Counted from the first letter of the stretch, positions 10,579 to 48,369 are shown. The stretch is 64,000 bases of DNA from an uncultured bacterium (GCA_937864235.1 CALMJI010000018.1:73955-137954); one strand, 5' to 3'. The notes: generated from the sequence alone by a model not told the origin. Numbers and translations are program-made.

Positions 10579-10710
10579 TCTATTCTTATCAGTTCTGTCT
10601 CAAGTATTTAAAATCTATTGTACTATAAAATAATCTTTTTGAATAGAGAAAAGCAATAGATTAGTAGTGCTTAGATAAATGAGATTATATAGCAAATTGA
10701 TATAATGTTT

Positions 10711-10971
10711 GTCCTCCTTTGGAGGAGGTGGTACGGAGTACCGGAGGTGTATTGAGCTAAATTCCCCTCTTGAGGGGTGTATTTCTACTATATTTATATA
10801 GTAGAAATACGGGGTGGAATAAAATATGAAAAAAACAATCTACTCCCATACGACACAAATGTTATTTTCTACTGTCCTCCTCCATCACCTTACGGTGCCA
10901 CCTACCTCCTAAATAAATATAGGATGGACTTAAAGCTCCCCCCTGCCTACCGCAAGTAGGCAAGGGAGGAC
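10711..10971. repeat. GC-rich modular intergenic repeat (stem-loop modules CCTCCT-ttgg-AGGAGG, GGTAC-gga-GTACC, CCCCTC-tt-GAGGGG) enclosing a perfect 15-bp inverted repeat at 10779-10810
   Basis: GC-rich palindromic modules in an AT-rich intergenic region; the same modules recur at more than 15 loci in the window. Confidence 0.8.
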
Positions 10972-11052
10972 AATTTATTTATTTTTTTACAATACATCTC
11001 ATCTTTTTCAGGAAAAAACCCGACAAATAACTACTTAAAAGATATATACAAC

Positions 11053-12159
11053 TTATAACGATACCAAACACTTATCTAATGCCTCTATAATCACCTTTTT
11101 GTCCATATTAGCTCCAATAAAGACAATTTTTTGTTCCCCCTTGCTTTCTCCAGCTTTAGATTTACTCCAATATCCATACGGATCAAGGTTGATAATATTC
11201 CCCGCTTGAGACCATAACAAAGCTGTTGTAAGATCAGAGTTATCCCAAGCAAACCCTTTAGACCGCACCACTCCTTGCAATGTTCCATTTTGTAATAATT
11301 CCATCAACTTTTGTCTATCAAAAGGCTTTTTACTCTCATAGACAAAACTACTAATTCCATATTCCTCAGTCTCTGGAGTATGTTCTCCTCTCATTTCTTT
11401 GAGCCAACCTATATTTTGAGAGGCTTTATCAAAATCAAATAATCCCGTATTGAGAATTTTCTCAAGAGAAATATCCCCTTTGACAGCCTCAATAATACGA
11501 GCATCTGGATTGAGTTTAGCTACAATACCCCGAATAGTTCCCACAGTGTCTTTGGAAACCAAATCAACTTTAGACAATACAATTACATCAGCAAATTCAA
11601 TTTGATCCGTCAGAAGCCCCACAATAGTTCTGGTATCTTCTTCTCCCAGAGATTCATCCGTATCCTTCAGCTGATCCTCTGAGGCAAGATAATTCATAAA
11701 ATTAGCAGTATCCACAACCGTCACCATAGTGTCAAGACGAGCAAAATGAGACAGAATATCTCCCGATTCATCATCAAAAGTAAAGGTCTCAGCAATCGGC
11801 AATGGTTCAGAAATTCCCGTAGACTCAATCACCAGATAATCAAATTTATTCTCTAGAGCAAGTTTTTTGACCTCTATTAATAAATCCTCTCTTAGAGTAC
11901 AACAAATACATCCATTACTAAGCTCAACCAATTTTTCTTCTGTTTTACTCAGAGAAACATCATTATTCGCTATCAGCTCAGCATCAATATTCACCTCAGA
12001 CATATCATTTACAATCACCGCAACCTTAAGACCCTGCCTATTTTTAAGAATAGCATTAAGAATAGTGGTTTTTCCACTACCTAAGAATCCAGATAAAACT
12101 GTGACTGGTAAAAGTTTCTTTTGCTTATCTTGCATAATATTATCTAATTGACTTTTCAC
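11053..12159 (-). CDS. CobW/COG0523-family GTPase metallochaperone
   Basis: Walker A GFLGSGKTT, metal-binding GCICC motif and CobW C-terminal domain. Confidence 0.85.
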   Translation of the reverse strand: MKSQLDNIMQDKQKKLLPVTVLSGFLGSGKTTILNAILKNRQGLKVAVIVNDMSEVNIDAELIANNDVSLSKTEEKLVELSNGCICCTLREDLLIEVKKLALENKFDYLVIESTGISEPLPIAETFTFDDESGDILSHFARLDTMVTVVDTANFMNYLASEDQLKDTDESLGEEDTRTIVGLLTDQIEFADVIVLSKVDLVSKDTVGTIRGIVAKLNPDARIIEAVKGDISLEKILNTGLFDFDKASQNIGWLKEMRGEHTPETEEYGISSFVYESKKPFDRQKLMELLQNGTLQGVVRSKGFAWDNSDLTTALLWSQAGNIINLDPYGYWSKSKAGESKGEQKIVFIGANMDKKVIIEALDKCLVSL

Positions 12160-12193
12160 AGTATATCAAAAAATATATCTAAATGCAAATTAT

Positions 12194-12541
12194 TTGCAAT
12201 ATGATATAAAGAGTATACTTAATTATGCTATAATATTATTATCACCTAAATTTAATAATATGGCACATACAGATTCTAAAGACTTACAAGCCAAACTTGA
12301 GCCAACTCAATATAATATCGAGGTCGGAGCTTATTATCATCATTACAAAAATCCTCAAACTCATTATAAAGTACTCAATCTAGCCTTATCCGAATGGGAT
12401 GAAGAACCAGCAGTAGTGTACCAGAGTATGACAGATACCTTAATCTGGGTCAGAAGGATAAATGGTGAAAATGGTTGGAATACCCCCGTCACACTAGACA
12501 ATAGCCAAATTGTGAATAGATTTGAGAGGGTAGAGGGGTAA
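12194..12541 (+). CDS. DUF1653 domain protein
   Basis: GAYYHHYKNPQTHYKVLNLA...EPAVVYQSMTDTLIWVRRI matches the DUF1653 signature as recalled (GxYRHYKG...Y.V...A...E..VVY....W.RP). Confidence 0.55.
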   Translation: MQYDIKSILNYAIILLSPKFNNMAHTDSKDLQAKLEPTQYNIEVGAYYHHYKNPQTHYKVLNLALSEWDEEPAVVYQSMTDTLIWVRRINGENGWNTPVTLDNSQIVNRFERVEG

Positions 12542-12545
12542 GGGG

Positions 12546-13034
12546 TTATTTATTTTCTAATACAATGGTGTTAAAAATATAGTCACTAAGACTTCTACTA
12601 TTTTTACTCAACACAGTTACTCCTGAAATTATAATATATATTAAAAATAAGATAGGTCTTATAAAACATATAAATGTTAATAGGAATCTATAAGGCAACA
12701 ACCATTTATTAACCTCATTACCATTTTTATGTAGCACCTTTAAACCTAATAAATTTCTACCCAATGTATTTCCTGAAAATGAGTATGGGAAACCAGAGTA
12801 TATCAATATAGATGCAAATAAAGTATAATCAAATAATTTTGGAGTGTAACTTTCTTTTAATCCATTTTCAAATAAATCTAAAAACAAATTCTCTAGAAAT
12901 TTAATATCTGTAAACCTAACTAATAATGCCAGAAAAATTAGTAATATAGCAGTTAATACTAGTATGAAAAATATATCTAGTAATATAGCAATGGATCTTT
13001 TCCAAGCAGAGGCTAATTTATTATTCATATACAT
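12546..13034 (-). CDS. RDD-family membrane protein
   Basis: WKRSIAILLDIFFILVL and GRNLLGLKVL motifs; 3 TM helices. Confidence 0.5.
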   Translation of the reverse strand: MYMNNKLASAWKRSIAILLDIFFILVLTAILLIFLALLVRFTDIKFLENLFLDLFENGLKESYTPKLFDYTLFASILIYSGFPYSFSGNTLGRNLLGLKVLHKNGNEVNKWLLPYRFLLTFICFIRPILFLIYIIISGVTVLSKNSRSLSDYIFNTIVLENK

Positions 13035-13146
13035 TAAATTAATTATTATATTCTTATTCTACTATTTATGTTATAGTTTGTCTACGATGCATCTCATCTT
13101 ATTCACTATATTTTTCATCCTTTTCACTACATCTTTCAAGAAACCA

Positions 13147-13488
13147 TTATCTCTTTTTCCTCACCCCAAACCCAACTATATAGCAGGCGATAAAAATTGT
13201 AATACTATAAGTAAGTTGGCTAGAGGGAATTTGTACTTCCTTATCAATCAAATTATCTAATTGAGCCATCTCTAAATATAACATTTGTAAATAATACCAA
13301 TACAAGACTATAGCCACTAATACTAATATAATTTTATCTAGACTTTTTGCTTGCAAGGATATTTTAAAACCGATCAAGATTATAAAAGGTGCTATAAACT
13401 GACCAAACATAAATGGTAAAAAGTAGAATATTATTGCTATTACTAATATTATTGTGAGTTTTAGAAAGTTATTTTTGAGTATATTCAT
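13147..13488 (-). CDS. small hydrophobic membrane protein (hypothetical)
   Basis: 113 aa, 3 TM helices, very AT-rich. Confidence 0.35.
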   Translation of the reverse strand: MNILKNNFLKLTIILVIAIIFYFLPFMFGQFIAPFIILIGFKISLQAKSLDKIILVLVAIVLYWYYLQMLYLEMAQLDNLIDKEVQIPSSQLTYSITIFIACYIVGFGVRKKR

Positions 13489-13510
13489 TTACTAAGTATT
13501 TTTAATTTCT

Positions 13511-13816
13511 TCACTTATTCAAATCTCTTGCCTTACGAACAAGATATAATTGTCTTAACATCAGAATATAATTGAAAGTCGCCCAAATAAAATATTTTAT
13601 CCAATCAGATTCTCCTCCACTCAATCCATTATTATCTATATAAATAGCCTCAGCATAAGTGACAACTATTATACCTATAATCGAGACAAAAGATATTAAA
13701 CTAAACCAAATAAACTTTTTCCTATATCTAGATATATACATCAGCACGAATATAAACATAAATAATGGAATAATATAGATATAGAATAAAAATAAAGGGA
13801 CTATTAAATCATACAT
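13511..13816 (-). CDS. small hydrophobic membrane protein (hypothetical)
   Basis: 101 aa, 3 TM helices. Confidence 0.35.
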   Translation of the reverse strand: MYDLIVPLFLFYIYIIPLFMFIFVLMYISRYRKKFIWFSLISFVSIIGIIVVTYAEAIYIDNNGLSGGESDWIKYFIWATFNYILMLRQLYLVRKARDLNK

Positions 13817-13838
13817 ATCATAATTATATTACTTACAT

Positions 13839-14141
13839 TTATTTCTTCTTCATAATATACCATATCCGAAACAATCCAATATAACTTACTCCTGTTAAAA
13901 TCAAAACATACCATAAGCTAAATGGGTTTACAGACCTATTTAATTCATCAGCTATAATAGCTTGCAATATAACTATATAAATGATACTAATCTGATTAAT
14001 AATTAAATAGATACAATCACTTATTATCTTTTTATTTTTAAAACTATAAACCAAAGTCATACTTATACATATGGGTGGGAGTATGTATAAAAAGAAAATA
14101 TATATAATTGATATTAAGTCAAGGAAAATGTTGTATATCAT
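13839..14141 (-). CDS. small hydrophobic membrane protein (hypothetical)
   Basis: 100 aa, 3 TM helices. Confidence 0.35.
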   Translation of the reverse strand: MIYNIFLDLISIIYIFFLYILPPICISMTLVYSFKNKKIISDCIYLIINQISIIYIVILQAIIADELNRSVNPFSLWYVLILTGVSYIGLFRIWYIMKKK

Positions 14142-14150
14142 ATAACAAAT

Positions 14151-15080
14151 TTAAGGATTACATAATGCTGCTAAAGTTCTCAGATATCCCACATTAGGAC
14201 GAAATTCTTCCAGATTCCAATAATCCTTCAATGGAGCAATATCTATATGACATCTATACTGATTAAACATACTATTGTATCTTGATCCTGACCATCTTCT
14301 TCCTGACTTAGTATGTACTTCTAAAAACCCTCCTGAAAGATTATCCCCACCCCAAGCTCGAGCACATGATGTAGGTAAAATACTTAATGACTCTTCAGCT
14401 CCTCTACGAATCCATCCTGACCAAGCAACATATTGCGAACAATATACTGGATCTGCTAAAATAGGATATACTGCATTGGTAGTGTCTATATGTTGAATTA
14501 AGGTATTTCCATTCAAAGCATACCAAGTTTTTATATCATTCCCTTTAGCATCCTTAGCCCATGGTGGTAATATCCCTGATTCTATTTTACCTTTATCGTT
14601 AATAATATCTACTCCTCCTTGTGTATTTATTTTTAAGTTATAACCTTTAGCTATCTCTATTGGAAAATTATATACTTTTGGAGCTTCATTATTCTTAATA
14701 TTAATTACTTGTCTGATTCCACCTTCTATTCCCTGTACCACAACATCTACCTTGTCGGAACTATAAATAACTTGTCCTTCGGTTGTAGATATTGTTGCTT
14801 TTCCTATATCTGCTATTCCTATTGATACTGTACCCTTTTGGATATTTTTTACTTGTATCTTTTTCTTATTTTGATCTATAATTACCCCTATATCTCCTTT
14901 CCAGTATTCTGACTTTTGATTCAGCTTCTCTACTCTAAGTCTACTTGGATCTTGTTTCTCAATTCTTTGTATAGTTTTTATATTTTCTGAATCTTTTTCA
15001 TTCCCATAAGCTAAAACTGGAAATTGACTAATCAATACCATTATTACCACCATCTGTATAAGTCCTTGTTTTAAATTCAT
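14151..15080 (-). CDS. secreted protein with Cys-containing C-terminal domain (DUF2599-like?)
   Basis: Signal peptide MNLKQGLIQMVVIMVLISQFPVLAYG; C-terminal block CSQYVAWSGW...CARAWGG...YRCHIDIAPLKDYWNLEEFRP. Confidence 0.5.
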   Translation of the reverse strand: MNLKQGLIQMVVIMVLISQFPVLAYGNEKDSENIKTIQRIEKQDPSRLRVEKLNQKSEYWKGDIGVIIDQNKKKIQVKNIQKGTVSIGIADIGKATISTTEGQVIYSSDKVDVVVQGIEGGIRQVINIKNNEAPKVYNFPIEIAKGYNLKINTQGGVDIINDKGKIESGILPPWAKDAKGNDIKTWYALNGNTLIQHIDTTNAVYPILADPVYCSQYVAWSGWIRRGAEESLSILPTSCARAWGGDNLSGGFLEVHTKSGRRWSGSRYNSMFNQYRCHIDIAPLKDYWNLEEFRPNVGYLRTLAALCNP

Positions 15081-15137
15081 AGATATAATTTAGATATATA
15101 CTTTAATTCTATATTATTTGTCAGTTATTGTCAAACA

Positions 15138-15908
15138 TTAACTCCTCAACCCCACTCCTCGACGGAGTAAGACTATATCAGTAATGGATAAGACTAATAC
15201 TAACATTACCAACATAACTACCGAAACCTGAATTGAGACATCTGAGACTCCAAAAAATCCATATCTAAAACCATTTACCATATATAAAATTGGGTTTGCC
15301 TTGGATATATTTTGCCAGAATTCTGGGAGTGCATTGACCGAATAAAATACTCCCCCAAGATAAGTCAGCGGGGTCAAGACAAAGGTTGGCACAATTGCTG
15401 TATGATCAAATTTCTTCGCAAAGATTGCATTCAATAACCCACCTAAAGAGAAAACTGTAGCCGTCAAAATAGAAAATAACAACACCGCCCAAATATTCAT
15501 AACTTCTAATTTGGTAAAGGCTAAAGCTACGATTAAGACCAAAACTCCTACTCCTAAACCTCTAATTATCCCCCCTACTACATAGCCCCAGACAATCACC
15601 CAATTCGGAGTGGGTGAAACTAATAATTCTTCTATGCTTTTGCCAAACTTAGCCCCAAAAAATGATCCCACCACATTCATAAAAGAGTTCGTAATAATTG
15701 CCATCATCACCAGTCCCGGGACTATGAATTGCATATAACTAATCCCCTCAATATCTCTAATCTGAGAGCCTACAAAAGAACCAAAAATCAAAAAATACAA
15801 ACTAGTAGTAATCACTGAAGGGAGCAAAGTCTGTGGCCAAATTCTAATAATTCGAATTAGCTCTTTATGAATAATTGTATATAGTGGTGTAAAAACTGGT
15901 GCTTTCAT
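15138..15908 (-). CDS. ABC-2 type transporter permease
   Basis: 256 aa, 6 TM helices, start abuts the upstream ATPase gene stop. Confidence 0.75.
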   Translation of the reverse strand: MKAPVFTPLYTIIHKELIRIIRIWPQTLLPSVITTSLYFLIFGSFVGSQIRDIEGISYMQFIVPGLVMMAIITNSFMNVVGSFFGAKFGKSIEELLVSPTPNWVIVWGYVVGGIIRGLGVGVLVLIVALAFTKLEVMNIWAVLLFSILTATVFSLGGLLNAIFAKKFDHTAIVPTFVLTPLTYLGGVFYSVNALPEFWQNISKANPILYMVNGFRYGFFGVSDVSIQVSVVMLVMLVLVLSITDIVLLRRGVGLRS

Positions 15909-15909
15909 A

Positions 15910-16815
15910 TTATTGTGAAACTTTATTGATAAATACTTCTTCTAACCTGTTCGTCTTATTCCTAATTCCTGTCACTCGCAATCCCTTGCTATGAAGTTCA
16001 TTGGTAATAGTATATAAATCCTCGCCCTGTAATAAATCTGTCTCTAGCCTCCCCTCTTCTATAACTCTGTATCTCTCTGGCAAATTCTTAACAGCTCCTA
16101 CCACATCTAGAACCAAAGTATCTTTTTTTAGCTCCGACAAAAGCTCTTTGACCGTACCAACTTCTAAGATATTACCCTTATTAATAATTCCCACTCTATC
16201 ACATAAATTCTCCGCCTCCTCCAGATAATGAGTAGTCAGGATAATAGTGACACCTTCCTGATTTAGTTCTCTTACAAATTCCCACATCTCTCGCCTCAAG
16301 TCCACATCCACTCCAGCAGAGGGCTCATCCAGTATAAGAATCTCGGGTTTATGAATTAGAGCACGGACAATCATCAGTCGCCTTTTCATACCTCCGGATA
16401 GCTTCATCGAGACAGTATCTCTTTTATCCCATAGCCCCAATCGCTTCAGTAAAATTTCAGCTCTTTCTTTAGCCTCTCCTGCCGGCATACCATAAAACCC
16501 TGCCTGCTGAATAACAATATCCTCCACCTTCTCAAACCAGTTAAAATTAAACTCTTGTGGTACCACCCCAAGATAAGTCTTGGCCTCTGAAGGGAATTTT
16601 TCAAAATCTAAACCATTAATTACAATATCACCTGAAGTTTTATTGGCAAGAGTTGTCAGCACATTGATAAGAGTAGACTTCCCCGCCCCATTAGGACCTA
16701 AAAGTCCAAAAATCTCCCCCTTATAAATAGTTAAATCTACTCCATTTAGAGCCTTAACTGCACCGTCCTTATAGGTTTTATATAAATTTTTAATCTCCAG
16801 AGCAACATCAGACAT
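15910..16815 (-). CDS. ABC transporter ATP-binding protein
   Basis: Walker A GPNGAGKST, signature LSGGMKRRL, Walker B ILILDEP. Confidence 0.9.
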   Translation of the reverse strand: MSDVALEIKNLYKTYKDGAVKALNGVDLTIYKGEIFGLLGPNGAGKSTLINVLTTLANKTSGDIVINGLDFEKFPSEAKTYLGVVPQEFNFNWFEKVEDIVIQQAGFYGMPAGEAKERAEILLKRLGLWDKRDTVSMKLSGGMKRRLMIVRALIHKPEILILDEPSAGVDVDLRREMWEFVRELNQEGVTIILTTHYLEEAENLCDRVGIINKGNILEVGTVKELLSELKKDTLVLDVVGAVKNLPERYRVIEEGRLETDLLQGEDLYTITNELHSKGLRVTGIRNKTNRLEEVFINKVSQ

Positions 16816-16881
16816 AAATATAATTTTATAATTTATATTTTTATATTATACCACAAAAACATATCAAAAACAATCTATGGT

Positions 16882-17628
16882 TTGACACTAAATATTGACA
16901 ACATGCTTATCTTGTGGTATGAATTAACTTGCCCTTTCACAAGAGGAGGAGATTCAATGATTCTGAGAAGAGGGTCTATTTTGCAAGCATTGGAAAATAC
17001 ATTCCACTCCTTAGCTATAATCAATATTAATAGTAATCTAAGTGATGAAGAGTTGGATCACATAGTTGATATTTTATTAAGTCAAAATCCTAGACTTAGA
17101 AGAGACAAAAATATTTATCATTGTCTATTGATAGGAAATAAATATCTTATTTTACCTTTGATAGGACAACTTGATAGAATCTATTATATTGAATGGATTG
17201 GAGATGAATATTGCATGCTAACATACATTTCCCCTCATTGCATAGAAATACCTATAGCTAAGGTATCCAAGCAACCTAATAGTTTAGAGGTATCTCTGTA
17301 TGGGTATAAAATACTCTATATACCCCAGATAATACAACTGCAAAATTATATTAGCCTATTCAAATTACTAAGAATAGATGCTAATGAATTTGATATGATA
17401 TGTAGCGTGAATACACATAACATAGATAATGAATATACAGAAGGCTGCTACCACTTTATGGATCATAATATCGGTAGCCCTGGATTACATTACTTTATAC
17501 CTCAAGTAAAGGTCCATGTGTTAGATGGACATGATGTAATGTTCAATAATTATTACGCTAACTTTAGTATATCAATAATACAGCTCCCCGATCAAATAGA
17601 AGAACTTGAAAACTATTTAACTCACTGA
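16882..17628 (+). CDS. hypothetical protein (Cys-containing, very AT-rich)
   Basis: 248 aa intact ORF with no recognisable family. Confidence 0.35.
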   Translation: MTLNIDNMLILWYELTCPFTRGGDSMILRRGSILQALENTFHSLAIININSNLSDEELDHIVDILLSQNPRLRRDKNIYHCLLIGNKYLILPLIGQLDRIYYIEWIGDEYCMLTYISPHCIEIPIAKVSKQPNSLEVSLYGYKILYIPQIIQLQNYISLFKLLRIDANEFDMICSVNTHNIDNEYTEGCYHFMDHNIGSPGLHYFIPQVKVHVLDGHDVMFNNYYANFSISIIQLPDQIEELENYLTH

Positions 17629-17662
17629 TCTCCTAAAGCCCAACCAGAACCTTCTGAGTGGG
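17629..17662 (+). terminator. putative rho-independent terminator
   Basis: AGCCCA...TGGGCT stem followed by TTTTTATTTT. Confidence 0.4.
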
Positions 17663-17733
17663 CTTTTTATTTTGTATTCAAGATATTAGATTATATGCTA
17701 TAATCAAAATATCCAATTGTTCTTTTACAAAAA

Positions 17734-18443
17734 TGAATGAATTTGAAATTGTTAATTTTTTTTCTCTTTGTGTTATTGACATATCTAAACTAAGGGGTAT
17801 AAATTTAAGAGATTTCTTAGAACTTGGGGACACTCCCGAGTACTATCTCATAATTAGCCCTCGTCATCTGTCTACAGAGTATCTACTCTTTAATTTACCT
17901 GAAAATTATAGAGTTCAGGCTGTATGTGGTAAGTTTTACATAGCCTCTCATATTGGAAGTGAAGATTACTATATCCCAGAAGCTGGGTATGCTTTAGTAA
18001 ATGTCACAAGCAAGGTGTCTGGGATAATTCTAAATATACGAGACATAAGAGTACTATATATTAATCTGGAAGGATGTGATTTTTCAGAAAGACAAACTGT
18101 ATATAGTGTGATTGATAAAATGCATATACCTCAATACAAAATACATCTTGTTTGCCTACAGTCTAGTGATATTAAAAGTTTAAGTTTAAAAAATTGGAGA
18201 TATCATCCTCTTGATAGCAAAGAATACTGCTTAAATTATCCAATCATCTTGCATTTTTTAGTTAATAATAATACTAGAATGTTTAAGACTGATACAAGTA
18301 TATTCACTCGAGATTGTATCACTCAAGATGGGAATGTAGGAATGACAATTTATATTCCATATATACCTAAAGGGTTGTTAGATTATCTTAAAAGGTGTTT
18401 AGAATTAAAGAACTCGTCCAATAACTCCTATAACCCCCCTTAA
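17734..18443 (+). CDS. hypothetical protein
   Basis: ORF frame 17658-18443; 17658 lies inside the terminator, so the start is more likely Met at 17734 (MNEFEIV). Confidence 0.3.
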
Positions 18444-18457
18444 GTCGTACGATTAAT

Positions 18458-19216: not shown

Positions 19217-19279
19217 AAAATAGCTTTATTTATAAACTTAAATTTATAATATCATAAAAATAATATTTTGGCTAAATTT

Positions 19280-19480
19280 TTGTCTCCTTTATTTTGTCTC
19301 CCTCCATATTTCGTAGGGGCGACCTTTCAGTCGCCTGTGTTTTTTCTAAAATTCCCCTATTGAGGGCTTTAAGTCCCTCCTATATTTATTTAGGAGGGGG
19401 TGGCACGGAGTGCCGGGGGTGGACTGTATTTGTATTTCTGTCCTCCCTTGGGGGAGGTGCCCGCAGGGCGGAGGAGGACA
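19280..19480. repeat. GC-rich modular intergenic repeat (modules GGCGAC-loop-GTCGCC, CCCCT-a-ttGAGGG, GGCAC-gga-GTGCC, CCTCCC-ttgg-GGGAGG)
   Basis: Same module family as the other loci. Confidence 0.8.
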
Positions 19481-19485
19481 TTCCA

Positions 19486-19854
19486 TTACAATCTATCCCT
19501 CACTATATCTTCAAGAATTATCATAACTCCATTTATAGACTTTAGAACTTCTTCATCAGTAAATCTAATTACCATAAAACCTAAATTCTCTAAATATTTT
19601 TGTCTAATAATGTCATTATCATAAATCTCTGGATGATTATGACTTTCTCCATCTACTTCTATAATTATTTTTAATTCTAGACATACAAAATCTACAATAT
19701 ATCTACCAACCGGTCTTTGTCTTCTAAAAATAACACCTAGTTTTTTACTCTTTAGACCATATTTCCATAAACAAGCTTCAGCTTTGGTCATAGAAGATCT
19801 TAATTTGTAAGCAACTGGTTTTAATCTTTTATTATAACTATTATTTTCTTTCAT
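19486..19854 (-). CDS. DUF559 endonuclease-domain protein (Vsr-like fold)
   Basis: RYIVDFVCLELKIIIEVDGESH...KYLENLGFMVIRF DUF559 signature. Confidence 0.8.
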   Translation of the reverse strand: MKENNSYNKRLKPVAYKLRSSMTKAEACLWKYGLKSKKLGVIFRRQRPVGRYIVDFVCLELKIIIEVDGESHNHPEIYDNDIIRQKYLENLGFMVIRFTDEEVLKSINGVMIILEDIVRDRL

Positions 19855-19907
19855 ATCGAGGGGTATATAATATATCTATATACTTTAGTACTGTCCTCCT
19901 CCGTCAC

Positions 19908-22283
19908 CTACCTCCTCACAACAAATTTCCCAATATTCCAAAGCCCCGCCCCAACTGCAGCACCAAACAATCCATAAAAAATCCAATCAGCTACCAGCAC
20001 AGCCCAAGGTTTATGATAACCAAACTCACATTCCGAATTAGCAGGTAAAATAGAGGCTTGGATTAGCCCATCTTTCTCTGAATTAGACTCCACTATCTTG
20101 TCCCCATTACAAGTCCACTGGAATTGAGGTGAATAAATCTCCGCTACTCGAACTTTTTGCTTCTCAGCTCCAGTCTTCACAATAGGATTATAAGAAAATT
20201 CCTGAGTAATCCCCTCTCCTGAGATATAAGCCTTCACATCTTTTACTTCATAAATACTATACCCCTCTACAGTAGAAGTAATTCTATTCAAACCATCTCT
20301 TTTTTGTAATAAATAGCAACTAATAAGATTCTTGTCATTTTCTAATCTATCTTCGCAATAATCATCATAACCACTAAATACAATATATTTAACATTATAA
20401 TCTCTCAAAATTTTAGTCCAATCTTGAGCTGAATAATTCATCAAAACTTTATCAAATTCATTAAAATACCTCTGCCCTTCCGACATCACCCGAGTATGAT
20501 TCCAAGAGCCATCATCATCACGAGTCAAATCTAGAATCCTATATTCCATATTCGGATTTAGCTCATCTAGAATTTTTTTAGCTCGCTCTACCCCTTCCAT
20601 ATGATAATCCATCGACGGAATAGTACGAAAAGTATACATCTGCCCCGCCTGATACCTAACCGAGATCAGTACCAGAATCAAAGCCACAGCCCCAGCAAAG
20701 GCCGAACTCAATTTCCAAGCTCTAGACTTAAATTCATTCGCACTATAATACCAAATCACCCCTCCCAACACACTCACTCCCAGAGCAAATATCATCATAA
20801 ATCTACCTGGGGTTCTAAGTCCCCAAAAATAAGGAAAATACTCATTCAAAACTCTATACAACCAAGAATTGCTATAACCAAGAGCCAGATACCCAGCCAA
20901 TCCAGAGCCAAGCCAAAGAGCTAAAATATATTTATTCCTCTTCAACCAGAAAATCCCTCCCACAGCTAAAGAAACCCAAAACAGCCAAATCAGACGATTA
21001 TCCAAAGGCACCGACCGCAAATCATAACCAATTTCCTCAGATACAATCCCCTCTTTATTCTGTAAATAAAATAATTCCTCAAAAGTCGGAGAATAGTAAT
21101 CCTTCACAAAAGGCACAATTCTCTCTTCAGTCTGAGAGTCATCTAGAATTCCATCAGCCTGACGATAACCAAAGAAAGTAGGGACCAAAACATGCAAGCC
21201 CATCAGCCCCACCACCATCCAAACCGCTCCAAACAAAATCCCCCTGCGTAACAATTCCCTCTTGGATTCAATATTCACCAAAGCCATCCCAAGCATAATC
21301 ACCAGAAGTGGCAAAACATTAGTAAATACCAAAGTAATCCCTGACACCAAAGTTGCAAAAGCTACCAAAACCCCCAAGACAATAATTCTAAGAACATTCT
21401 CCCACCATTTCACTTCATTCCTATGAAGAATTCGCAGCCAAGCCAAGACAATCCAAGGGAGAAGACTATAAGCCACCCCGAACTCTATCACCCCACTCAA
21501 AACCGACAAAAAGAAAGGGTTTAGAGCATAGACTAAAGCCACCAAAATCTGCCCAGATATACCAGCAATTCTATTTTCTAATTTTGGCATAATAGCCCTA
21601 TACAAAACAATAGCCCCAATACCTGCAATAACAATACTATTGAATTGATGAATTTTAATCCCTAAGTACAAATCCCCAGCAATCCAACTCAAAAACTCTG
21701 TATCCAAAACCGCCCAATTACTAGTCAAGATATTCCAAGCCCGCCCAAACTGATAAAACCAACCCGAGCTAAACTGCTCCCAGACATCCGACAAAACCAC
21801 CATACCCCCCATATCCAAAAAGCTATTATGAGGAATCTCAGACTTTACAAAATACCTACCAGAAACCAATACTAAACCAGCTAAACCAAATCCAGCAATC
21901 CACATCCAATCTTTAATTTTAGACACCCATCTCACAACCCAAGACATAATCCCATCCAAAAAATTCTCCAACCAAGGCCAAGACAATTTATGATTACTCC
22001 AGATTTCACTAAAGACCATAATACACAACAGATAATACACATTCACCGCAAAAGCCTCAGCCAACTCGTCCAATTTTAGAGACAAAGCAATTGGAGTCAA
22101 AGTCAAAAGCCCCAAAGCCACATACCCAGCCGGACGATTATCTATCCGAAACAAAATCACCCCAGCCACATAAGCCCATAGTAAAGCCCCCCACACCTCA
22201 CCAAAAGACCAAAATAACAAAACAAATACCACCCCAACCACAGCAAGCCTCAACCAATCTAACCCCGAAATCTTAGATTTCAT
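19908..22283 (-). CDS. large polytopic membrane protein (YfhO/PMT-like putative glycosyltransferase or polymerase)
   Basis: 791 aa, more than 12 TM helices in the N-terminal 520 aa plus a soluble C-terminal domain; 3' end overlaps a short GC repeat module. Confidence 0.45.
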   Translation of the reverse strand: MKSKISGLDWLRLAVVGVVFVLLFWSFGEVWGALLWAYVAGVILFRIDNRPAGYVALGLLTLTPIALSLKLDELAEAFAVNVYYLLCIMVFSEIWSNHKLSWPWLENFLDGIMSWVVRWVSKIKDWMWIAGFGLAGLVLVSGRYFVKSEIPHNSFLDMGGMVVLSDVWEQFSSGWFYQFGRAWNILTSNWAVLDTEFLSWIAGDLYLGIKIHQFNSIVIAGIGAIVLYRAIMPKLENRIAGISGQILVALVYALNPFFLSVLSGVIEFGVAYSLLPWIVLAWLRILHRNEVKWWENVLRIIVLGVLVAFATLVSGITLVFTNVLPLLVIMLGMALVNIESKRELLRRGILFGAVWMVVGLMGLHVLVPTFFGYRQADGILDDSQTEERIVPFVKDYYSPTFEELFYLQNKEGIVSEEIGYDLRSVPLDNRLIWLFWVSLAVGGIFWLKRNKYILALWLGSGLAGYLALGYSNSWLYRVLNEYFPYFWGLRTPGRFMMIFALGVSVLGGVIWYYSANEFKSRAWKLSSAFAGAVALILVLISVRYQAGQMYTFRTIPSMDYHMEGVERAKKILDELNPNMEYRILDLTRDDDGSWNHTRVMSEGQRYFNEFDKVLMNYSAQDWTKILRDYNVKYIVFSGYDDYCEDRLENDKNLISCYLLQKRDGLNRITSTVEGYSIYEVKDVKAYISGEGITQEFSYNPIVKTGAEKQKVRVAEIYSPQFQWTCNGDKIVESNSEKDGLIQASILPANSECEFGYHKPWAVLVADWIFYGLFGAAVGAGLWNIGKFVVRR

Positions 22284-22414
22284 AACTTATACCATAAATT
22301 TTAATATTCTAATTATATCACAAACACCACACTATTCTCAATTCAAAAATATATATATCACCTATATTTTGATTTTACAAAATCATAATATTATGATATC
22401 ATCAATCCGTCATT

Positions 22415-23239
22415 TTGCACATTAATAAAATGTTATTCAAAATAGTGTCTCATTCAGTAGTCCAAATTCTAGAGTTTTACCTAAAATGCTCTTGGCTTGA
22501 ACCTACACCATATTCACGACAAGCAATTTATAAAGAAGCAGAAGCTTTTAAAAAGCTAAAACAATGCTCCCCATTTGCAATCCCATGGAATATGGAAATA
22601 AAGTTAGGACCATATATTTGTATCCTAACCCGAAATGCTGGGACTTCATTAGCCACTCTATTAGATTCATCACAAAGTGAAGAATATATCCACTATCTAG
22701 CAGATTTTCTAAGCAACCTAGAAAATTGGATTATAAGTACAAGCTATGAAGTGTCTATAGAATCTTTAACCATAAATCCTTGGTTAAAAACTAAAGAAAA
22801 AATAATATCTCTACTCAATGAAGGAGATAATCATCACTCATTACATCAAGTAAAAACAAACCTACAGACTCCCCCAACAGCAAGAGTATTTGAAGAACAC
22901 GGAGACCTAAACCTAGAGAACATTATGTTCAAGCAAGGCAAAATAACACTCATTGACCCTAGATTTGGAGTATACCCAATAGCATTTCCTTATCTCAAAA
23001 TGTTATATATGTGGACATTACTACATAGCGGGGCAGACTGCTCACACTTAGTCGTACAAAAGATATTAGAATCTATACAAAAGATGGGATTGTCCGAAGA
23101 GATAAAAGTTCTACTACCCACAACCCTACTCAGGATAAAATATCCTCAAATGATGGAGCCCAAATTCCATCATCTACTCAACCCTACAAAATCAGATGAA
23201 GTCATAGCAATATTAGACTTTATTTGGAGTAATCTATAA
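22415..23239 (+). CDS. phosphotransferase (APH/choline-kinase-like kinase fold)
   Basis: Catalytic loop HGDLNLENIM and IDPRFG metal-binding motif. Confidence 0.5.
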   Translation: MHINKMLFKIVSHSVVQILEFYLKCSWLEPTPYSRQAIYKEAEAFKKLKQCSPFAIPWNMEIKLGPYICILTRNAGTSLATLLDSSQSEEYIHYLADFLSNLENWIISTSYEVSIESLTINPWLKTKEKIISLLNEGDNHHSLHQVKTNLQTPPTARVFEEHGDLNLENIMFKQGKITLIDPRFGVYPIAFPYLKMLYMWTLLHSGADCSHLVVQKILESIQKMGLSEEIKVLLPTTLLRIKYPQMMEPKFHHLLNPTKSDEVIAILDFIWSNL

Positions 23240-23240
23240 A

Positions 23241-23267
23241 AGGAAGAAATTTTCTTCCTTTTTTTCT
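23241..23267 (+). terminator. rho-independent terminator
   Basis: AGGAAGA...TCTTCCT hairpin followed by a T7 run, directly after the stop codon. Confidence 0.6.
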
Positions 23268-23307
23268 TTTTATATGATAATCTACAGATAATATTTATAC
23301 ACTATAT

Positions 23308-23949
23308 ATGAATCAATATAATCTCAGAATTTTATTCATCAGGCATGCAGAAAGCCAAGCCAATACCACCCCAGATATAATAGTAGGCAGACAAGCAGAA
23401 TCCCCACTAACAGAATTAGGAGAACAACAAGCACAATTACTAAGACATAGATTAGAAGAAATCTCTGATCCATATATATACACCTCAAATCTAATCAGAT
23501 CTCAAGCCACCACGACACTAGCCATAGCCCCAGATTTGCATCACAAAATCAAAATAATACCTCAGCTACAAGAATTCACCAATGGAGACTGGGATGGGAA
23601 ATCTCGTAAAGAAATCTACACCCCCCAACAATTAAACCAAATCAATACAGCAGGATACCTATTCATACCACCAAATGGAGAATCCCAAAGAATGGTACAA
23701 AGAAGAGCCTCTAATTGGCTAGAAGATGAAATACTATACAATCCAGAATTCCAAGGAACCCAAGAAAAAACAATTTTAATCTTTTCACATGGACTAGTAA
23801 TCAAAAGCCTACTCCACTATATATTAGGATTCTCAGATAGATATATATATCGTTTTAAATTAGTCAATACTGGAATATGTGAATTCAAATACACAGAAGA
23901 AGGCTGGTTCCCTATAGCTATCAATGATACAAAACATCTAGTAAAATAA
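23308..23949 (+). CDS. histidine phosphatase family protein (phosphoglycerate-mutase-like)
   Basis: RHAESQAN catalytic RHG-type motif at the N-terminus. Confidence 0.75.
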   Translation: MNQYNLRILFIRHAESQANTTPDIIVGRQAESPLTELGEQQAQLLRHRLEEISDPYIYTSNLIRSQATTTLAIAPDLHHKIKIIPQLQEFTNGDWDGKSRKEIYTPQQLNQINTAGYLFIPPNGESQRMVQRRASNWLEDEILYNPEFQGTQEKTILIFSHGLVIKSLLHYILGFSDRYIYRFKLVNTGICEFKYTEEGWFPIAINDTKHLVK

Positions 23950-24009
23950 TCCACCTCCCCACAAAATATGCTATAATAAACACATACCAATTAATCCTAA
24001 ATTAATATT

Positions 24010-24327
24010 ATGCTACTCACAACCACATCCCAAATCTCAGGAAAAGAAATCACAGAGTATAAAGGAATAGTCAACGGCGAAGTCATCCTAGGAGCCAACG
24101 TCTTCCGAGACATTATGGCCTCAATCAGAGACTTCATCGGAGGGAGGTCAGCCGCCTATGAAGAAGTACTCAAAAAAGCCAAAGAAGAAGCCTTTCAAGA
24201 AATACAACAAGAAGCCAAAAAACTCGGAGCCAATGCCATAATCGGAATCGATATAGACTATGAAATGATCGGAACCGGAATGCTCATGGTAGCCGTCAGC
24301 GGAACCGCCGTCGTAACCAAAGAGTAA
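24010..24327 (+). CDS. YbjQ/UPF0145 family protein
   Basis: 105 aa; [11 protein letters not shown]...[13 protein letters not shown] signature. Confidence 0.8.
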
Positions 24328-24338
24328 TCTCAACTGAT

Positions 24339-24611
24339 AAATTCCCCTCTCGAGAGATAGCAGGCTTTGCCTGACGGGGTGGAGTATTTCTGTACTTCAC
24401 CTTTCTGTCTCCCTTTGGAGGGAGTACCCGTAATAGACTGAAAGTCTGGGAAAGGGGTCGGGAAAACGGCAGTTTTCCCGTGGAGGAAGGCTGGGAAACC
24501 GTGAGGTTTCACAAGAGCAAATCTCATTTGCGACGGGGGAGGGTGGATAAAACACAAACTAAAACTCTATCCACCTCCGGCACTCTGTGCCACCTCCTCC
24601 AAAGGAGGACA
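24339..24611. repeat. GC-rich modular intergenic repeat (includes GCAAATctcATTTGC hairpin module)
   Basis: Shares modules with 25248-25492, 37190-37300 (inverted) and 60200-60290. Confidence 0.8.
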
Positions 24612-24736
24612 ATTACTATCCAATTTACTGTTATTAGTCTAGTAATGTATATAATCCCTTTTGTCGACGATTACCTCATCTCGCACATAAACTTGACAAA
24701 ATATTAAGTTTAAGTTAATATTGAGATACAAATTGC

Positions 24737-24780
24737 CACTCGGCACGACCCTTATTAGGAATATTTCCCGATAAGGGGTT
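24737..24780 (+). terminator. rho-independent terminator (plus-strand orientation) abutting the 3' end of the mazF-like gene
   Basis: CCCTTAT...ATAAGGGG hairpin followed by TTATTTTTTTAT. Confidence 0.45.
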
Positions 24781-25186
24781 ATTTTTTTATAAATATATCT
24801 AAAAAGGCCTGCTTCACTATATCAAAATCCTGAGGAGACATAATACCTTTTCTATAATGTAATCGTTTAGCATCTAAAACTCTCATCTGAGATATTAATG
24901 CTGAATATTGCTTCCCTTTATATATGAACGGAATATAAAATTGATTATTTGGTTTTATTTTAGTACTGGTTGGAATAGCAAAAAATAGTTTTTGATTAAA
25001 TTTGTGCAACACAATAACTGGTCTATGGAAATTAGAATTTCTTCCACTCATTTCAAAACCCACATTCTCACCTAAATAACTCATCCAAATTTCTCTTTCT
25101 CTAAAAGCTGGCAATTTAGCAGATGATATATCTATTTTCTCTTTTAATCCAATCCACTCCTGAAATCTTTTTATAAACTTTTGCAT
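24779..25186 (-). CDS. MazF/PemK-family endoribonuclease toxin-like protein (copy 1)
   Basis: REIWMSYLGENVGFEMSGRNSNFHRPVIVL...AIPTSTKIK...ISQMRVLDAKRL matches the MazF/Kid/EndoA fold signature. Confidence 0.65.
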   Translation of the reverse strand: MQKFIKRFQEWIGLKEKIDISSAKLPAFREREIWMSYLGENVGFEMSGRNSNFHRPVIVLHKFNQKLFFAIPTSTKIKPNNQFYIPFIYKGKQYSALISQMRVLDAKRLHYRKGIMSPQDFDIVKQAFLDIFIKK

Positions 25187-25250
25187 ATTATATTTTTGAT
25201 TATTATTTACCTAGTATATACCCAAAACTTTATTAAAGCAAAAGTTTCTG
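25187..25250 (-). promoter_or_regulatory. conserved promoter/5' leader module (TTGCTT-17-TATACT ... TATAAT-ATG) shared by three toxin genes
   Basis: About 60 nt nearly identical at 25187-25250, 25983-26045 and 28833-28895, continuing into the first codons ATGCAAAAgTTT. Confidence 0.55.
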
Positions 25251-25492
25251 TCCACACCCACCGCTATGCGGCCCACTCGCCGGCGAGGGACAGTTTTTTG
25301 GGGGGCTCGGCGGTAACTTTGTCCTCCCTTCGGAGGGAGTACCCGTAGGGTGAGGGTGGATGGGCTATTTTTGTCCTCCCTTGGGGGAGGTGGCCGTCAG
25401 GCCGGAGGAGGACAGGAGCAAATCTCATTTGCGACGACGGAGTGAGGACTTGCTCACTGCCCTTTTACGATAAAAGGCATACCCAAGATAGT
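25248..25492. repeat. GC-rich modular intergenic repeat
   Basis: Modules CTCCCT-tcgg-AGGGAG, GCAAATctcATTTGC and CCTTTTAcgaTAAAAGG-catacccaagatag. Confidence 0.8.
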
Positions 25493-25583
25493 AAATCTAA
25501 ACTTGACAATCAATACTATATATTGTAATATAGTTACATATTTGGGATTGTCCCACGTACCTCTCCTCGGAGAGGACTATTTT

Positions 25584-25982
25584 TTATCTATAGAGATTAG
25601 AAAATCCCTTTTTTATATCAAAAAAGTCCTTATTATCTAAATCACCCATATAGGTTGTTAGTCTTCTAAAATCTATTGTCCTTGCTTGAGCTAAATTTAC
25701 AACTTGGGCTCTGCCCCGATGAGTAAATGAAACATACCAAGAGCCCTCTTTTATTTTTGTAGAACAAGGTAAGACCATAAACTGATATCTACTTAGTTTT
25801 TTCAAAATTACAACTGGTCTAGTAAAACTATCGTTTTTACCACTAACCTCAGTACCTATGTTTTCTCCCACACTACACCACCAAATCTGCCCCTCCTTAG
25901 TAAAGGGAGGTTTGCTATTAGATTGATCTAATTTAGGCTTTATAGCTAACCACTCCTGAAATCTTTTTATAAACTTTTGCAT
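25584..25982 (-). CDS. MazF/PemK-family endoribonuclease toxin-like protein (copy 2, paralog)
   Basis: Identical first 11 aa (MQKFIKRFQEW) to copy 1; GQIWWCSVGENIGTEVSGKNDSFTRPVVIL...LPCSTKIK...AQARTIDFRRL. Confidence 0.65.
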   Translation of the reverse strand: MQKFIKRFQEWLAIKPKLDQSNSKPPFTKEGQIWWCSVGENIGTEVSGKNDSFTRPVVILKKLSRYQFMVLPCSTKIKEGSWYVSFTHRGRAQVVNLAQARTIDFRRLTTYMGDLDNKDFFDIKKGFSNLYR

Positions 25983-26045
25983 ATTATATTTTTGATTCTT
26001 ATCTATCTAGTATATCCTAAATATTTTAGTAAAGCAAAAGCTTCT
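25983..26045 (-). promoter_or_regulatory. conserved promoter/5' leader module (copy 2)
   Basis: See 25187-25250. Confidence 0.55.
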
Positions 26046-26192
26046 GTCCTTCGCCCTTTTGTCCCCCTTCGGAGGGGGTGCCTGCAAGGTGGGGGTGGCT
26101 TGTATTCTGACCCTCACTGCCCTTCTGTCCCTCGCTTTTTAATCCGCCTTGGGAGGAAGCGAGGGTGGCACGGAGTGCCGGGTGTGGACTGT
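26044..26192. repeat. GC-rich modular intergenic repeat
   Basis: CCCCCT-tcgg-AGGGGG, aatccgccttgggaggaagcgaggg and GGCAC-gga-GTGCC modules. Confidence 0.8.
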
Positions 26193-26220
26193 ATTTTTCT
26201 TTCCTATCTACAAACCTAAT

Positions 26221-27291
26221 TCACCCAATACTTTGAAAATAATTATTCACAGCAAATTCATATTGCTCTATGAATATCTTTTTGAAATAAGTAATATTAT
26301 TAGTCTCATAAAATAATATACTAGCCTTTTTATACTCAGCCTCAGATACCCCTCTATAAGACAATGGCGTATAATCATAAGCAATCAACATAGCATTAGA
26401 TACAAGTCTAGCAGTCCTTTTATTCCCATCCTCAAAACCCTGTATATATGACAATAAAATTAAGCTGAAAAACGCCTTCTCAAACACATTAGAAGTCCCA
26501 TTCACCAATTTTACCATAGACTTTATAGCCTCCTCAATATGAAACATATTATCTATTGGCCTATAATTAGTCCCCACAATACCAACTGGAGACTTTCTCA
26601 AATTATGAGTAATATTCAAATTTTTAACCAAAATCTGATGAGCTTTTTCAATAAAAGCCTGCTTCAAAACTTTAAAACTCTTTTTATGAGCTATCACAAA
26701 ATCAAAAGCCTCCTTATGATTAAGAATCATTTGAGTCTCCTCCTGACTTTTACCAACCGCACTTTGATGATTGACAATCAAAGACTCCGTATCCAAAAGA
26801 GAATAAGTGTTTCCCTCAATCTGAGAAGATTTCCAAGCAAACTCAATAATTATCCTTTCAAACTCCTTATGCTTAATCACCTCACTATCTATACCCTCCA
26901 GATTACTAACAAAAGTTTTATGCAAACTCTCCAAATAACTCATTTCCTCCTCCGTAAAAACTGAAGTCTCCGCCAAAAGTTTAAAAATATCAAAATTAAA
27001 TTTACTACTAACTATCCTCTCATCCTGAGGAATAGCAAAATACTTCTCCACATCTACAGGCCTCAAAATAGCATAGCTAGGAGACAAATGATACTCCACA
27101 CCGCGACCAGCACCAGTCTGTACCAAATACCCAAGATCACATAATAATTGCAAATCCCTGACAATAGTCACACGAGAAACCTCCTCAGCCAAAAACCCCA
27201 TTATATCCAAAACCGCCCCACTACCATGAGACTCAAAAAACTCCATAACTCTAAGCTGGCGAACATTAAGCACAATATTATCCTGCTTCAT
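26221..27291 (-). CDS. Fic/DOC family protein with N-terminal wHTH, inhibitory-helix-like SxxxEGN motif and degenerate Fic motif
   Basis: QGFEDGNKRTAR in place of canonical HPFx(D/E)GNGRxxR (His to Gln); SSQIEGNTYS upstream resembles the class II inhibitory motif. Confidence 0.65.
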   Translation of the reverse strand: MKQDNIVLNVRQLRVMEFFESHGSGAVLDIMGFLAEEVSRVTIVRDLQLLCDLGYLVQTGAGRGVEYHLSPSYAILRPVDVEKYFAIPQDERIVSSKFNFDIFKLLAETSVFTEEEMSYLESLHKTFVSNLEGIDSEVIKHKEFERIIIEFAWKSSQIEGNTYSLLDTESLIVNHQSAVGKSQEETQMILNHKEAFDFVIAHKKSFKVLKQAFIEKAHQILVKNLNITHNLRKSPVGIVGTNYRPIDNMFHIEEAIKSMVKLVNGTSNVFEKAFFSLILLSYIQGFEDGNKRTARLVSNAMLIAYDYTPLSYRGVSEAEYKKASILFYETNNITYFKKIFIEQYEFAVNNYFQSIG

Positions 27292-27374
27292 ATAAAATAA
27301 TTAAATCATTAATTCAATCTAATTGTATCATAAATGATACAATTAAGCAATTGCAGTGATATAATTAAATATCG

Positions 27375-27680
27375 TCATCTCCACCCTTCGTAGGGGCGAC
27401 CTCTCAGTCGCCTGTATTTTGTACTAAATTCCCCTCTCCTCCCAAGGCGGATTTCATTGAGGGGTGGACAGCTTCGCTGGACGGGGTGGAGTGTATTTTT
27501 GTCCCCCTTTGGAGGGGGTACCTGCAAGGTGGGGGTGGATTGTATTCTGCCCCTCACTGCCCTTTTGTCCCTCGTTTTTTAATCCGCCTTGGGAGGAGGC
27601 GAGGGTGGCACGGAGTGCCGGGTGTGGACTGAGCTTCCCTCCCCTTTTACGATAAAAGGCATACCCAAGATAGTAAATCT
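27375..27680. repeat. GC-rich modular intergenic repeat (largest mosaic copy)
   Basis: Contains nearly all modules seen elsewhere, including a nested insertion of the aatccgccttgggaggag module inside the CCCCTC...GAGGGG hairpin. Confidence 0.85.
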
Positions 27681-48272: not shown

Positions 48273-48369
48273 ATCTGTATTCTCTTATTGATATATTATA
48301 TTTTGTATTTTTATTATAGCATAGAAAGAAAAATTTTTGAATGGGTTGTATGGTGTTTTTAAATTTCCC

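Follow-up and report, generated by a model that had tools for sequence, protein, structure and literature searches.

Covarying intergenic hairpins in a Paceibacteria-like genome as probable building blocks of a REP/BIME-like mosaic repeat family

Short GC-rich hairpins present in high copy outside genes are typical of the REP, BIME and REPIN repeats, which include mosaic clusters of alternating orientation (BIMEs) and inverted doublets with a spacer and sub-families with compensated stems (REPINs), and a GTAG motif 5' of the hairpin defines the substrates of REP-associated tyrosine transposases (RAYTs). REPINs are mobile, and compensatory changes are common in their hairpins (PMC3116915); the same source lists SDRs as a related class. 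The SDRs of Nostoc, like ERIC, NEMIS/Correia and the modular BOX elements, are very small dispersed intergenic repeats with hairpin potential. Among described motifs, the one closest to the repeats studied here is the whalefall-1 RNA motif (Rfam RF01762), graded as certainly RNA by its authors (Weinberg et al. 2010; PMC2864571). Here we compare these systems with hairpin repeats in a 64,000-nt stretch of DNA from an uncultured bacterium (GCA_937864235.1 CALMJI010000018.1:73955-137954; hereafter the window). An original prediction, made from the DNA alone, had noted that copies of two hairpins differ by paired substitutions and had read this as selection on structure rather than decay of a mobile element. 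Our analysis suggests that these hairpins are probably building blocks of a REP/BIME-like miniature mosaic repeat family in a genome of Paceibacteria, within the candidate phyla radiation (CPR).

Every hairpin named in the original prediction is present, starting 0 to 5 nt from where it had been placed: CCTCCT-ttgg-AGGAGG begins at 10713, CCTCCC-ttgg-GGGAGG at 19442, CCCCCT-ttgg-AGGGGG at 27503, CTCCCT-tcgg-AGGGAG at 25324, CCCCCT-tcgg-AGGGGG at 26063 and GGTAC-gga-GTACC at 10729, with GGCAC-gga-GTGCC near 19401, 26169 and 27609. The two kinds of hairpin are halves of one unit of 41-43 nt, which runs TGT, hairpin A, T, hairpin B, a third segment of 5 nt and TGGA(T/C), and whose ends, the TGT head and TGGAY tail, are invariant and non-palindromic. 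Hairpin A has 6 bp, a pyrimidine 5' arm, a purine 3' arm and a loop of the form YNGG (TTGG, TCGG, TAGG or CYGG), and hairpin B has a stem of 4-5 bp and, in most copies, a G-N-A triloop. Hairpin B can be swapped among sub-families, while the third segment follows whichever version hairpin A has. There are four main recurrent sub-families:

Sub-family S1: hairpin A CCTCCT/AGGAGG or CCTCCC/GGGAGG, third segment GGAGG.
Sub-family S2: hairpin A CCCCCT/AGGGGG, third segment GGGGG.
Sub-family S3: hairpin A CTCCCT/AGGGAG, third segment GAGGG.
Sub-family S4: hairpin A CCCTCG/CGAGGG, third segment GGGTG.

In three sub-families the third segment forms a direct repeat on either side of hairpin B (GGAGGT, GGGGGT or GGGT). 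Taking it for a pairing partner or a target-site duplication fits three sub-families and not cleanly S3 (AGGGAG/GAGGG), and this idea was rejected.

To avoid circularity, hairpin-A units were gathered by unpaired anchors only (TGTC[CT]...G[GT]GGA[CT]), with the four or five false positives kept. The window and 32 Paceibacteria/Parcubacteria loci together yielded 46 distinct sequences. In this set 92.6% of hairpin-A cells are paired, against 79.3 +/- 1.1% in column shuffles, 44 cells are changed on both sides against 12.4 expected, and the covariation score is 0.436 against 0.198, none of these values being reached in 500 shuffles (0/500). Controls with a slid partner are 61-72% paired and score 0.13-0.19. 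Among 33 distinct units whose hairpin B lay outside the constraint of the search pattern, 58% have a perfect hairpin-B stem of at least 4 bp, compared to 3.8% of shuffles, and at least eight different stem sequences occur. The paired substitutions claimed at the outset are thus beyond chance, and formation of the hairpin is indeed constrained: stems are nearly always perfect, and within sub-families departures from the consensus amount to 0.9% of cells in the stems, 0% in the TGT head, 1.3% in the TGGAY tail and 7.6% in loop A. Independent compensatory events are few, about 4-6 for hairpin A, because the copies fall into few sub-families.

What these figures mean depends on the kind of variation. 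Five stem versions make up 69 of the 78 simple hairpin-A copies (27, 13, 11, 9 and 9), and 459 of their 468 pairs (98%) are Watson-Crick. Nearly all of the covariation therefore separates one discrete, perfectly paired version from another; the versions are few and intermediates are almost absent. The paired changes are differences among ready-made hairpin versions and so do not demonstrate a conserved regulatory RNA. The mismatches in the 78 copies are 4 T.G, 3 C.A and 2 C.T, and this small sample holds no excess of T.G over C.A, the asymmetry predicted by RNA-level selection on one strand. While the constraint on the hairpin stands, the contrast drawn with a mobile element is not supported, as the units behave like mobile, recombining repeat DNA. 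They come in discrete versions, in both orientations, in mosaic arrays and inverted doublets, with modules nested in loops and gain, loss or exchange at orthologous sites; a RAYT-type transposase is encoded on the same contig; and compensated stems are a property of the mobile REPINs too. This is a caution for covariation-based RNA discovery, as a mobile repeat with a few perfectly paired sub-families yields strong covariation without being a conserved RNA.

Stem versions appear to be copied and exchanged as whole cassettes rather than compensated stepwise at one site. In a REP/BIME-like family the most economical explanation would be a copying filter by which only foldable modules are propagated or retained. 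The elements would most likely be handled as single-stranded DNA hairpins by a trans-acting HUH/Y1 enzyme, for which the single-copy, syntenic RAYT-like transposase on the contig is the obvious candidate, and transcripts would be affected only secondarily. Such a filter accounts for the data better than a conserved RNA whose stems evolve by stepwise compensation. The units share with REP, BIME and REPIN repeats the extragenic, high-copy GC-rich hairpins, the mosaics, the spaced inverted doublets and the compensated sub-families. They differ in that the A/B units, which dominate, have two hairpins, no GTAG and invariant TGT and TGGAY ends, and in that modules are recursively nested in one another's loops. 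SDR, ERIC, NEMIS/Correia and BOX sequences are unrelated to them.

Several other modules are mixed with the units. Module E is CGTAG followed by GGGCGACC-YTCAG-TCGCC (also written GGGCGACC-loop-GTCGCC); module C is AAATTCCCCTC-TYGA-GAGGGGTGGA..hairpin..CGGGGTGGA; module D is about 110 nt long with four small hairpins; and mini-hairpins of 19-25 nt are also found. Modules sit inside the loops of other modules. The role of loops as insertion points could reflect either a preference of insertion or a survival filter sparing inserts that preserve the parent hairpin.

Turnover of the repeats can be followed at orthologous sites, as several loci are syntenic with the window, including L016 (~72% nucleotide identity). 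The S2 unit downstream of HisRS is kept in L016, with a 19-nt hairpin, GCCTGCCTGCGGTAGGCAG, placed exactly in its loop (TC^GG), and the same hairpin lies in the loops of window units at 29015, 48489 and 10938. L016 also has extra units downstream of HisRS and is without the doublet found at 58939-59030 in the window. Between the window and L015 identity is 94% for the Fic gene and 67-72% for its neighbors. In the unit beside Fic the two genomes agree in the flanks, in hairpin B and in the tail and differ in hairpin A, which is CCCTCG, a 25-nt nested insert and CGAGGG in the window and CCTCCC-TTGG-GGGAGG in L015. The arrays upstream of Fic have in common only the first modules (E and the 5' half of C) and the last 50 nt, and in L026 module D lies inside a hairpin-B loop, as it does in the window. 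Judged by these comparisons, stems appear to be exchanged as cassettes, modules gained or lost in loops, and arrays turned over faster than genes.

Perfect stems could also arise without any selection for folding, as by-products of mutation through template switching in hairpins or through gene conversion among copies. Stems that are 98% Watson-Crick, the replacement of a whole stem between identical flanks and the nested palindromes would all fit this idea. We nevertheless think it distinctly improbable. Identical stem versions and nested mini-hairpins turn up at many unlinked sites and across different metagenome-assembled genomes (MAGs), which argues for dispersal of pre-formed modules and not local creation, and within sub-families the loops are eight times more variable than the stems.

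Several genes bordered by the arrays are of toxin type (Pfam), with two PemK, one Fic, two Zeta and DUF559, and the run PemK, PemK, Fic, Zeta at 24779-28832 has repeat arrays between each. The Fic segment at 26164-27443 is 94% identical to positions 5437-6716 of L015, which belongs to a different Paceibacteria MAG where the neighbors are differently ordered. On both sides the BLAST match ends inside repeat modules. That the edges of this segment fall within modules suggests that the repeats may help shuffle accessory genes.

Such junctions would also fit double-stranded DNA sites, whether protein-binding palindromes or cruciforms, that serve nucleoid organization, insulation or recombination and in which palindromic symmetry is itself selected. 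Placement independent of orientation and the invariant, non-palindromic TGT and TGGAY punctuation agree with this account, which we nonetheless find improbable. Stems vary freely among sub-families, with at least eight sequences for hairpin B, a diversity that a single sequence-specific binding protein would hardly accommodate. At 4-6 bp the stems are also short for extruding a cruciform, and no candidate binding protein was identified.

Genomic placement also bears on whether the units act in transcripts. Of the copies whose context could be scored, about 93% are intergenic. Units lying between genes of the same direction are sense in 20 cases and antisense in 25, without orientation preference, and what comes after hairpins A and B is a 10-nt purine tail and not directly a U/T-run, so the features of an intrinsic terminator are missing. 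The proposal that the two hairpins are terminators or processing sites is accordingly not borne out. Module E alone is a hairpin followed by a T-run and resembles a terminator, often antisense to both neighboring genes. Neighboring units form 23 tail-to-tail pairs, seven of them with a spacer of 20-24 nt; these shortest spacers have a common AT-rich sequence, and the usual form joins an S1 unit to an S2 or S3 unit. The tail-to-tail doublets match the REPIN/BIME pattern. Units of the window are mostly on the plus strand at 10-30 kb and mostly on the minus strand at 36-60 kb. A tie between unit orientation and replication direction, read from local GC skew, was considered and dropped, with no link in other loci (odds ratio 0.94, p=1). 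The predominant orientation flips across a low-GC island at ~29200-35000 (22-28% GC), which holds glycosyltransferases, a methyltransferase and two large open reading frames (ORFs), 29154-30806 and 30826-33105, with no Pfam match.

An exact-pattern scan of species-representative genomes with the hairpin-B module matched 32 loci, nearly all labeled as Parcubacteria, Paceibacteria or Minisyncoccia MAGs and mostly from freshwater; the same pattern found no match in viral contigs. By these labels, the host is a Paceibacteria-like member of the CPR. A sequence-only hidden Markov model (HMM), blind to pairing, counts 137 copies in 310 kb, with 25 in the window. The window is AT-rich (~34% GC) and densely coding, begins with the gene for the V-ATPase B subunit and has GC-rich islands only in intergenic regions. 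Its repeat arrays, of 60-480 nt each, occupy more than 14 intergenic sites and come to ~3 kb, or ~5% of the 64 kb. CPR genomes are regarded as small and streamlined, yet this stretch is rich in dense hairpin-repeat arrays, and their presence alongside a RAYT homologue extends REP/BIME-type biology to the CPR.

Virtually every window ORF of 70 aa or more was scanned against Pfam, with no transposase, integrase, Nop-domain or Cas protein among the matches. A tblastn search with RayT and IS608 TnpA queries matched the contig that bears the window, where a RAYT-like ORF of 182 aa (L001 2853-3401) is situated ~6.6-7.1 kb upstream of window base 1. It matches the NCBIfam model REP_Tyr_transpos (REP-associated tyrosine transposase) at E=1.9e-16, its 60 bits falling short of the equivalog cut-off of 80, and Pfam Y1_Tnp (E=4.5e-4). 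Of the proteins with solved structures, E. coli TnpA-REP (4ER8) matches it best, the alignment covering both the HUH motif and the segment with the catalytic Tyr, and it has 694 homologues, many named RayT by their source. The gene is single-copy and syntenic: its neighborhood, CysRS, CCA-adding enzyme, RAYT and V-ATPase I, is kept in a 55%-identical relative that has a unit doublet. A single-copy, syntenic pattern is the one described for RAYTs (10.1101/2022.05.22.493013). A homologue is also present in MAG JAULZW01, the source of four repeat loci. Four orthologues were compared:

L001 2853-3401: RAYT-like ORF on the contig of the window.
L036 4001-4561: RAYT-like orthologue.
L038 2741-3313: RAYT-like orthologue.
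L039 4001-4663: RAYT-like orthologue.

An inverted pair of REP-like elements, each a GTAG with a hairpin, lies inside the ORF at the same two positions in all four. The stems are GGAGGG/CCCTCC in L001 and L038 and GTCGGCG/CGCCGAC in L036 and L039, fully compensated in both copies, and in L039 the second copy is tandemly multiplied. Elsewhere on L039, at 1895 and 3502, the REP variant GTAGA-GTCGGCG..CGCCGAC occurs as inverted copies ~1.6 kb apart in genes called as a type I restriction-modification operon. Module E, for its part, carries the hallmark of REPs, GTAG 5' of a GC-rich hairpin, in several compensated stem variants (CGTAG-GGGCGAC.., GTAGA-GTCGGCG..). With the REP-RAYT partnership the genome shares the single-copy, syntenic gene and, in module E but not in the A/B units, this motif; it differs in having the REP-like pair inside the ORF instead of flanking it, and in its host, a small-genome CPR bacterium. 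We infer a link between the RAYT-like protein and the repeats, which is credible where module E is concerned but unproven in the case of the A/B units. We found no publication linking RAYT to Patescibacteria in the literature searched. The combination of loop-nested insertion and a REP pair inside the RAYT ORF is unusual.

A second candidate transposase, the ORF at 55622..56338, was set aside: its motif HEATHLLGLGLH and Cys motifs, judged by eye from the translation, suggest an archaemetzincin-type peptidase, and it has no Pfam match at E<=1e-4. This ORF has an HExxHxxGxxH motif and a GC content above its surroundings, is bracketed by inverted E modules (55579-56456) and is missing from the syntenic L016 site.

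Several observations weigh against a REP/BIME-like family. The A/B units start with TGTC and lack the GTAG motif, and no GC-rich repeat flanks the RAYT-like gene, in departure from the classical arrangement with cognate REPs on both sides. The 5-nt segment that tracks hairpin A has no explanation in such a model. Transposition of single-stranded DNA on the lagging strand might predict an orientation bias, and GC skew gave no link. The insertion polymorphisms come from genomes that are ~72-94% identical and could be deletions, as gain and loss are indistinguishable at this distance, and the sites compared include no transposition intermediate or strictly empty/filled whole-unit site between near-identical strains. 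Finally, the G-rich strand has GNA and some GNRA loops and the units resemble whalefall-1, so that a role as RNA is conceivable.

On the RNA reading, the units would be structured RNA modules, either whalefall-1-like small RNAs or elements of untranslated regions (stabilizers, processing sites or terminators), with selection acting on RNA pairing. The seed architecture of whalefall-1, rated 'Y' for RNA by Weinberg et al. (PMC2864571), is similar: a 5' GUGUC, a pyrimidine/purine hairpin with a YNGG loop, a variable second hairpin and a purine tail ending in GGAY. The first hairpin reads GUGUCCCUCC-UUGG-GGAGGGAC and the tail AGGGUGAGGAY, so that the layout is the same and the sequence partly so. 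Both families also have two sub-types or more in which the tail tracks hairpin 1 (two in whalefall-1), and both occur as inverted pairs among other hairpin repeats. The covarying stems, the GNA or partly GNRA loops on the G-rich strand, the T-run after the module E hairpin and a two-hairpin fold that is the minimum-energy structure are further points in favor of RNA. We still regard this reading as rather unlikely. The units show neither an orientation preference relative to flanking genes nor, in the small sample of mismatches, T.G above C.A, and hairpins A and B have no direct U-run; z-scores for RNA folding of the G-rich strand, at -0.6 to -1.4, do not stand out; and content at orthologous sites is replaced wholesale beside genes that are still 94% identical. 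Searched in E-value mode, Rfam gives repeated sub-threshold matches of whalefall-1 in the window, the best unit scoring 21.7 bits against a threshold of 37, and no copy passes in 18 related loci, whereas bona fide whalefall-1 on two TARA contigs, used as a positive control, scores 68-75 bits. At gathering thresholds, Rfam matched only a group I intron and tRNA-Ala in the whole window. Hairpin 2 of whalefall-1 has 9 bp and a CUUG loop, in contrast to 4-5 bp and a GNA loop here, and its pairs are head-to-head, whereas the units are mostly tail-to-tail. In sequence-only HMM cross-searches of units and whalefall-1 seeds only hairpin A aligns, and weakly, so homology is unproven.

The bona fide whalefall-1 copies lie at 4130-4500 of L034 and 430-560 of L035, both TARA ocean contigs. 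Those of L034 form a head-to-head inverted pair with another repeated hairpin (CGTTACGAACGTCTWCGTTCGTAATGCAGTCTGGAAGCTCTAGCT) on both flanks, so whalefall-1 also sits in hairpin-repeat mosaics. This suggests that whalefall-1 may itself be a repeat of REP/BIME-like kind, and the caution on covariation may apply to it, with the bona fide copies examined being those of two TARA contigs only.

A bolder extension of the REP/BIME-like family can be offered only tentatively: a recursive hairpin-in-loop system of Paceibacteria in which modules of 19-110 nt insert by preference into one another's loops. A domesticated RAYT-type enzyme, with an inverted pair of its cognate GTAG-hairpins in its own ORF, would drive this system or co-evolve with it, with the whalefall-1 'sRNA' class (small RNA) being a repeat of this sort. 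If true, this would be a new organization of the REP/RAYT partnership, and the whalefall-1 'sRNA' class would really be such a repeat.

As for the arrangement of the modules, arrays of stem-loops whose stems are variable but consistently palindromic are known from TIGR systems in the CPR (PMC12045711), so guide-RNA arrays of a CRISPR-like or TIGR-Tas-like system come to mind. We consider this extremely improbable, given that no Nop-domain (Tas) or Cas protein was found in the Pfam scan described above, that the units are scattered over the intergenic regions of the window and form no single regular array, that loops of 3-4 nt are too small for dual spacers of 8-12 nt, and that the 'variable' parts are a few recurring versions common to genomes. 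Integron attC sites also seem unlikely, with no integrase among the window ORFs (Pfam) and multi-module mosaics in place of single sites; GTTRRRY cores were not searched for. The modules and arrays of the window are as follows:

10710..10749, plus strand: unit with hairpin A CCTCCT/AGGAGG and hairpin B GGTAC-gga-GTACC (sequence-only HMM E=6e-8), the first example of the original prediction.
19312..19337, plus strand: module E, REP-like (GTAG and hairpin) and terminator-like.
27389-27414 and 55579-55604, plus strand, and 37349-37377, 48559-48587 and 56428-56456, minus strand: further copies of module E.
56543-56570, minus strand: module E variant GTAGA-GTCGGCGA..TCGCCGAC.
19390..19479, plus strand: two units, 19390-19424 and 19439-19479, holding GGCAC-gga-GTGCC and CCTCCC-ttgg-GGGAGG.
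24338..24611: module C (plus), S3 unit (plus, 24406-24553), 20-nt AT-rich spacer and inverted S1 unit (minus, 24569-24611), the two units forming a tail-to-tail doublet.
24434-24545: module D, ~110 nt with four hairpins, in the hairpin-B loop of that S3 unit, within 24426-24546.
25250..25411: three units, 25250-25292 (minus), 25320-25361 (plus, CTCCCT-tcgg-AGGGAG) and 25372-25411 (plus).
26060..26189, plus strand: S2 unit 26060-26100 (CCCCCT-tcgg-AGGGGG) and S4 unit 26126-26189, the latter with a 25-nt hairpin nested in its hairpin-A loop.
27389..27629, plus strand: module E, module C with a nested hairpin in its loop, S2 unit 27500-27540 and S4 unit 27566-27629 (nested).
28895..29074, plus strand: module C with nested inserts and S2 unit 29015-29074, which has the 19-nt hairpin GCCTGCCTGCGGTAGGCAG in its TT^GG loop.
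36913..37377, minus strand: long reverse array of module E, a unit with module D (37185-37295) in its hairpin-B loop, module C, S3 unit 37036-37076, unit 36980-37014 and module C.
38419..38640, minus strand: module C and units 38485-38524, 38547-38587 and 38596-38640.
48362..48737, mixed orientation: unit 48377-48416 (minus), S4 unit 48424-48466 (plus), 22-nt spacer, S3 unit with nested 19-nt hairpin 48489-48549 (minus), module E (minus), S1-like unit 48612-48653 (minus) and module C with nested hairpin (minus).
56428..56570, minus strand: GTAGA-hairpin REP variant, S2 unit 56469-56510 and module E, downstream of the HisRS gene.
58939..59030: tail-to-tail doublet of S1 unit 58939-58981 (plus), spacer and hairpin-A-only unit (minus).

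Beside the toxin-type genes, strong promoter-like sites (TTGACA-17-TAATAT or TATTAT) followed by a short sequence occur in three copies on the plus strand, at ~24693-24795, 25503-25585 and 27685-27790. Each stands at an array edge and runs toward or into the 3' end of a minus-strand gene, PemK, PemK and Zeta, respectively. A hairpin and T-run follow both of the copies checked, the first two (24693-24795 and 25503-25585). The three sites may mark antisense or antitoxin small RNAs.

A group I intron (59794-60092; Rfam 86.5 bits) interrupts a tRNA gene at 59730-60143. Downstream of it, 60198-60320 holds a hairpin module similar to D and a further copy of the 3' end of the tRNA (aatcctactcgcggagc), resembling an integration scar. 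In L016 the syntenic region is longer by ~230 nt within the intron and by ~680 nt from one tRNA end to the other. Elsewhere in the window, a heliorhodopsin gene at 50181-51011 (Pfam E=2e-94) adjoins a gene for an RRM-domain protein at 51079-51330.

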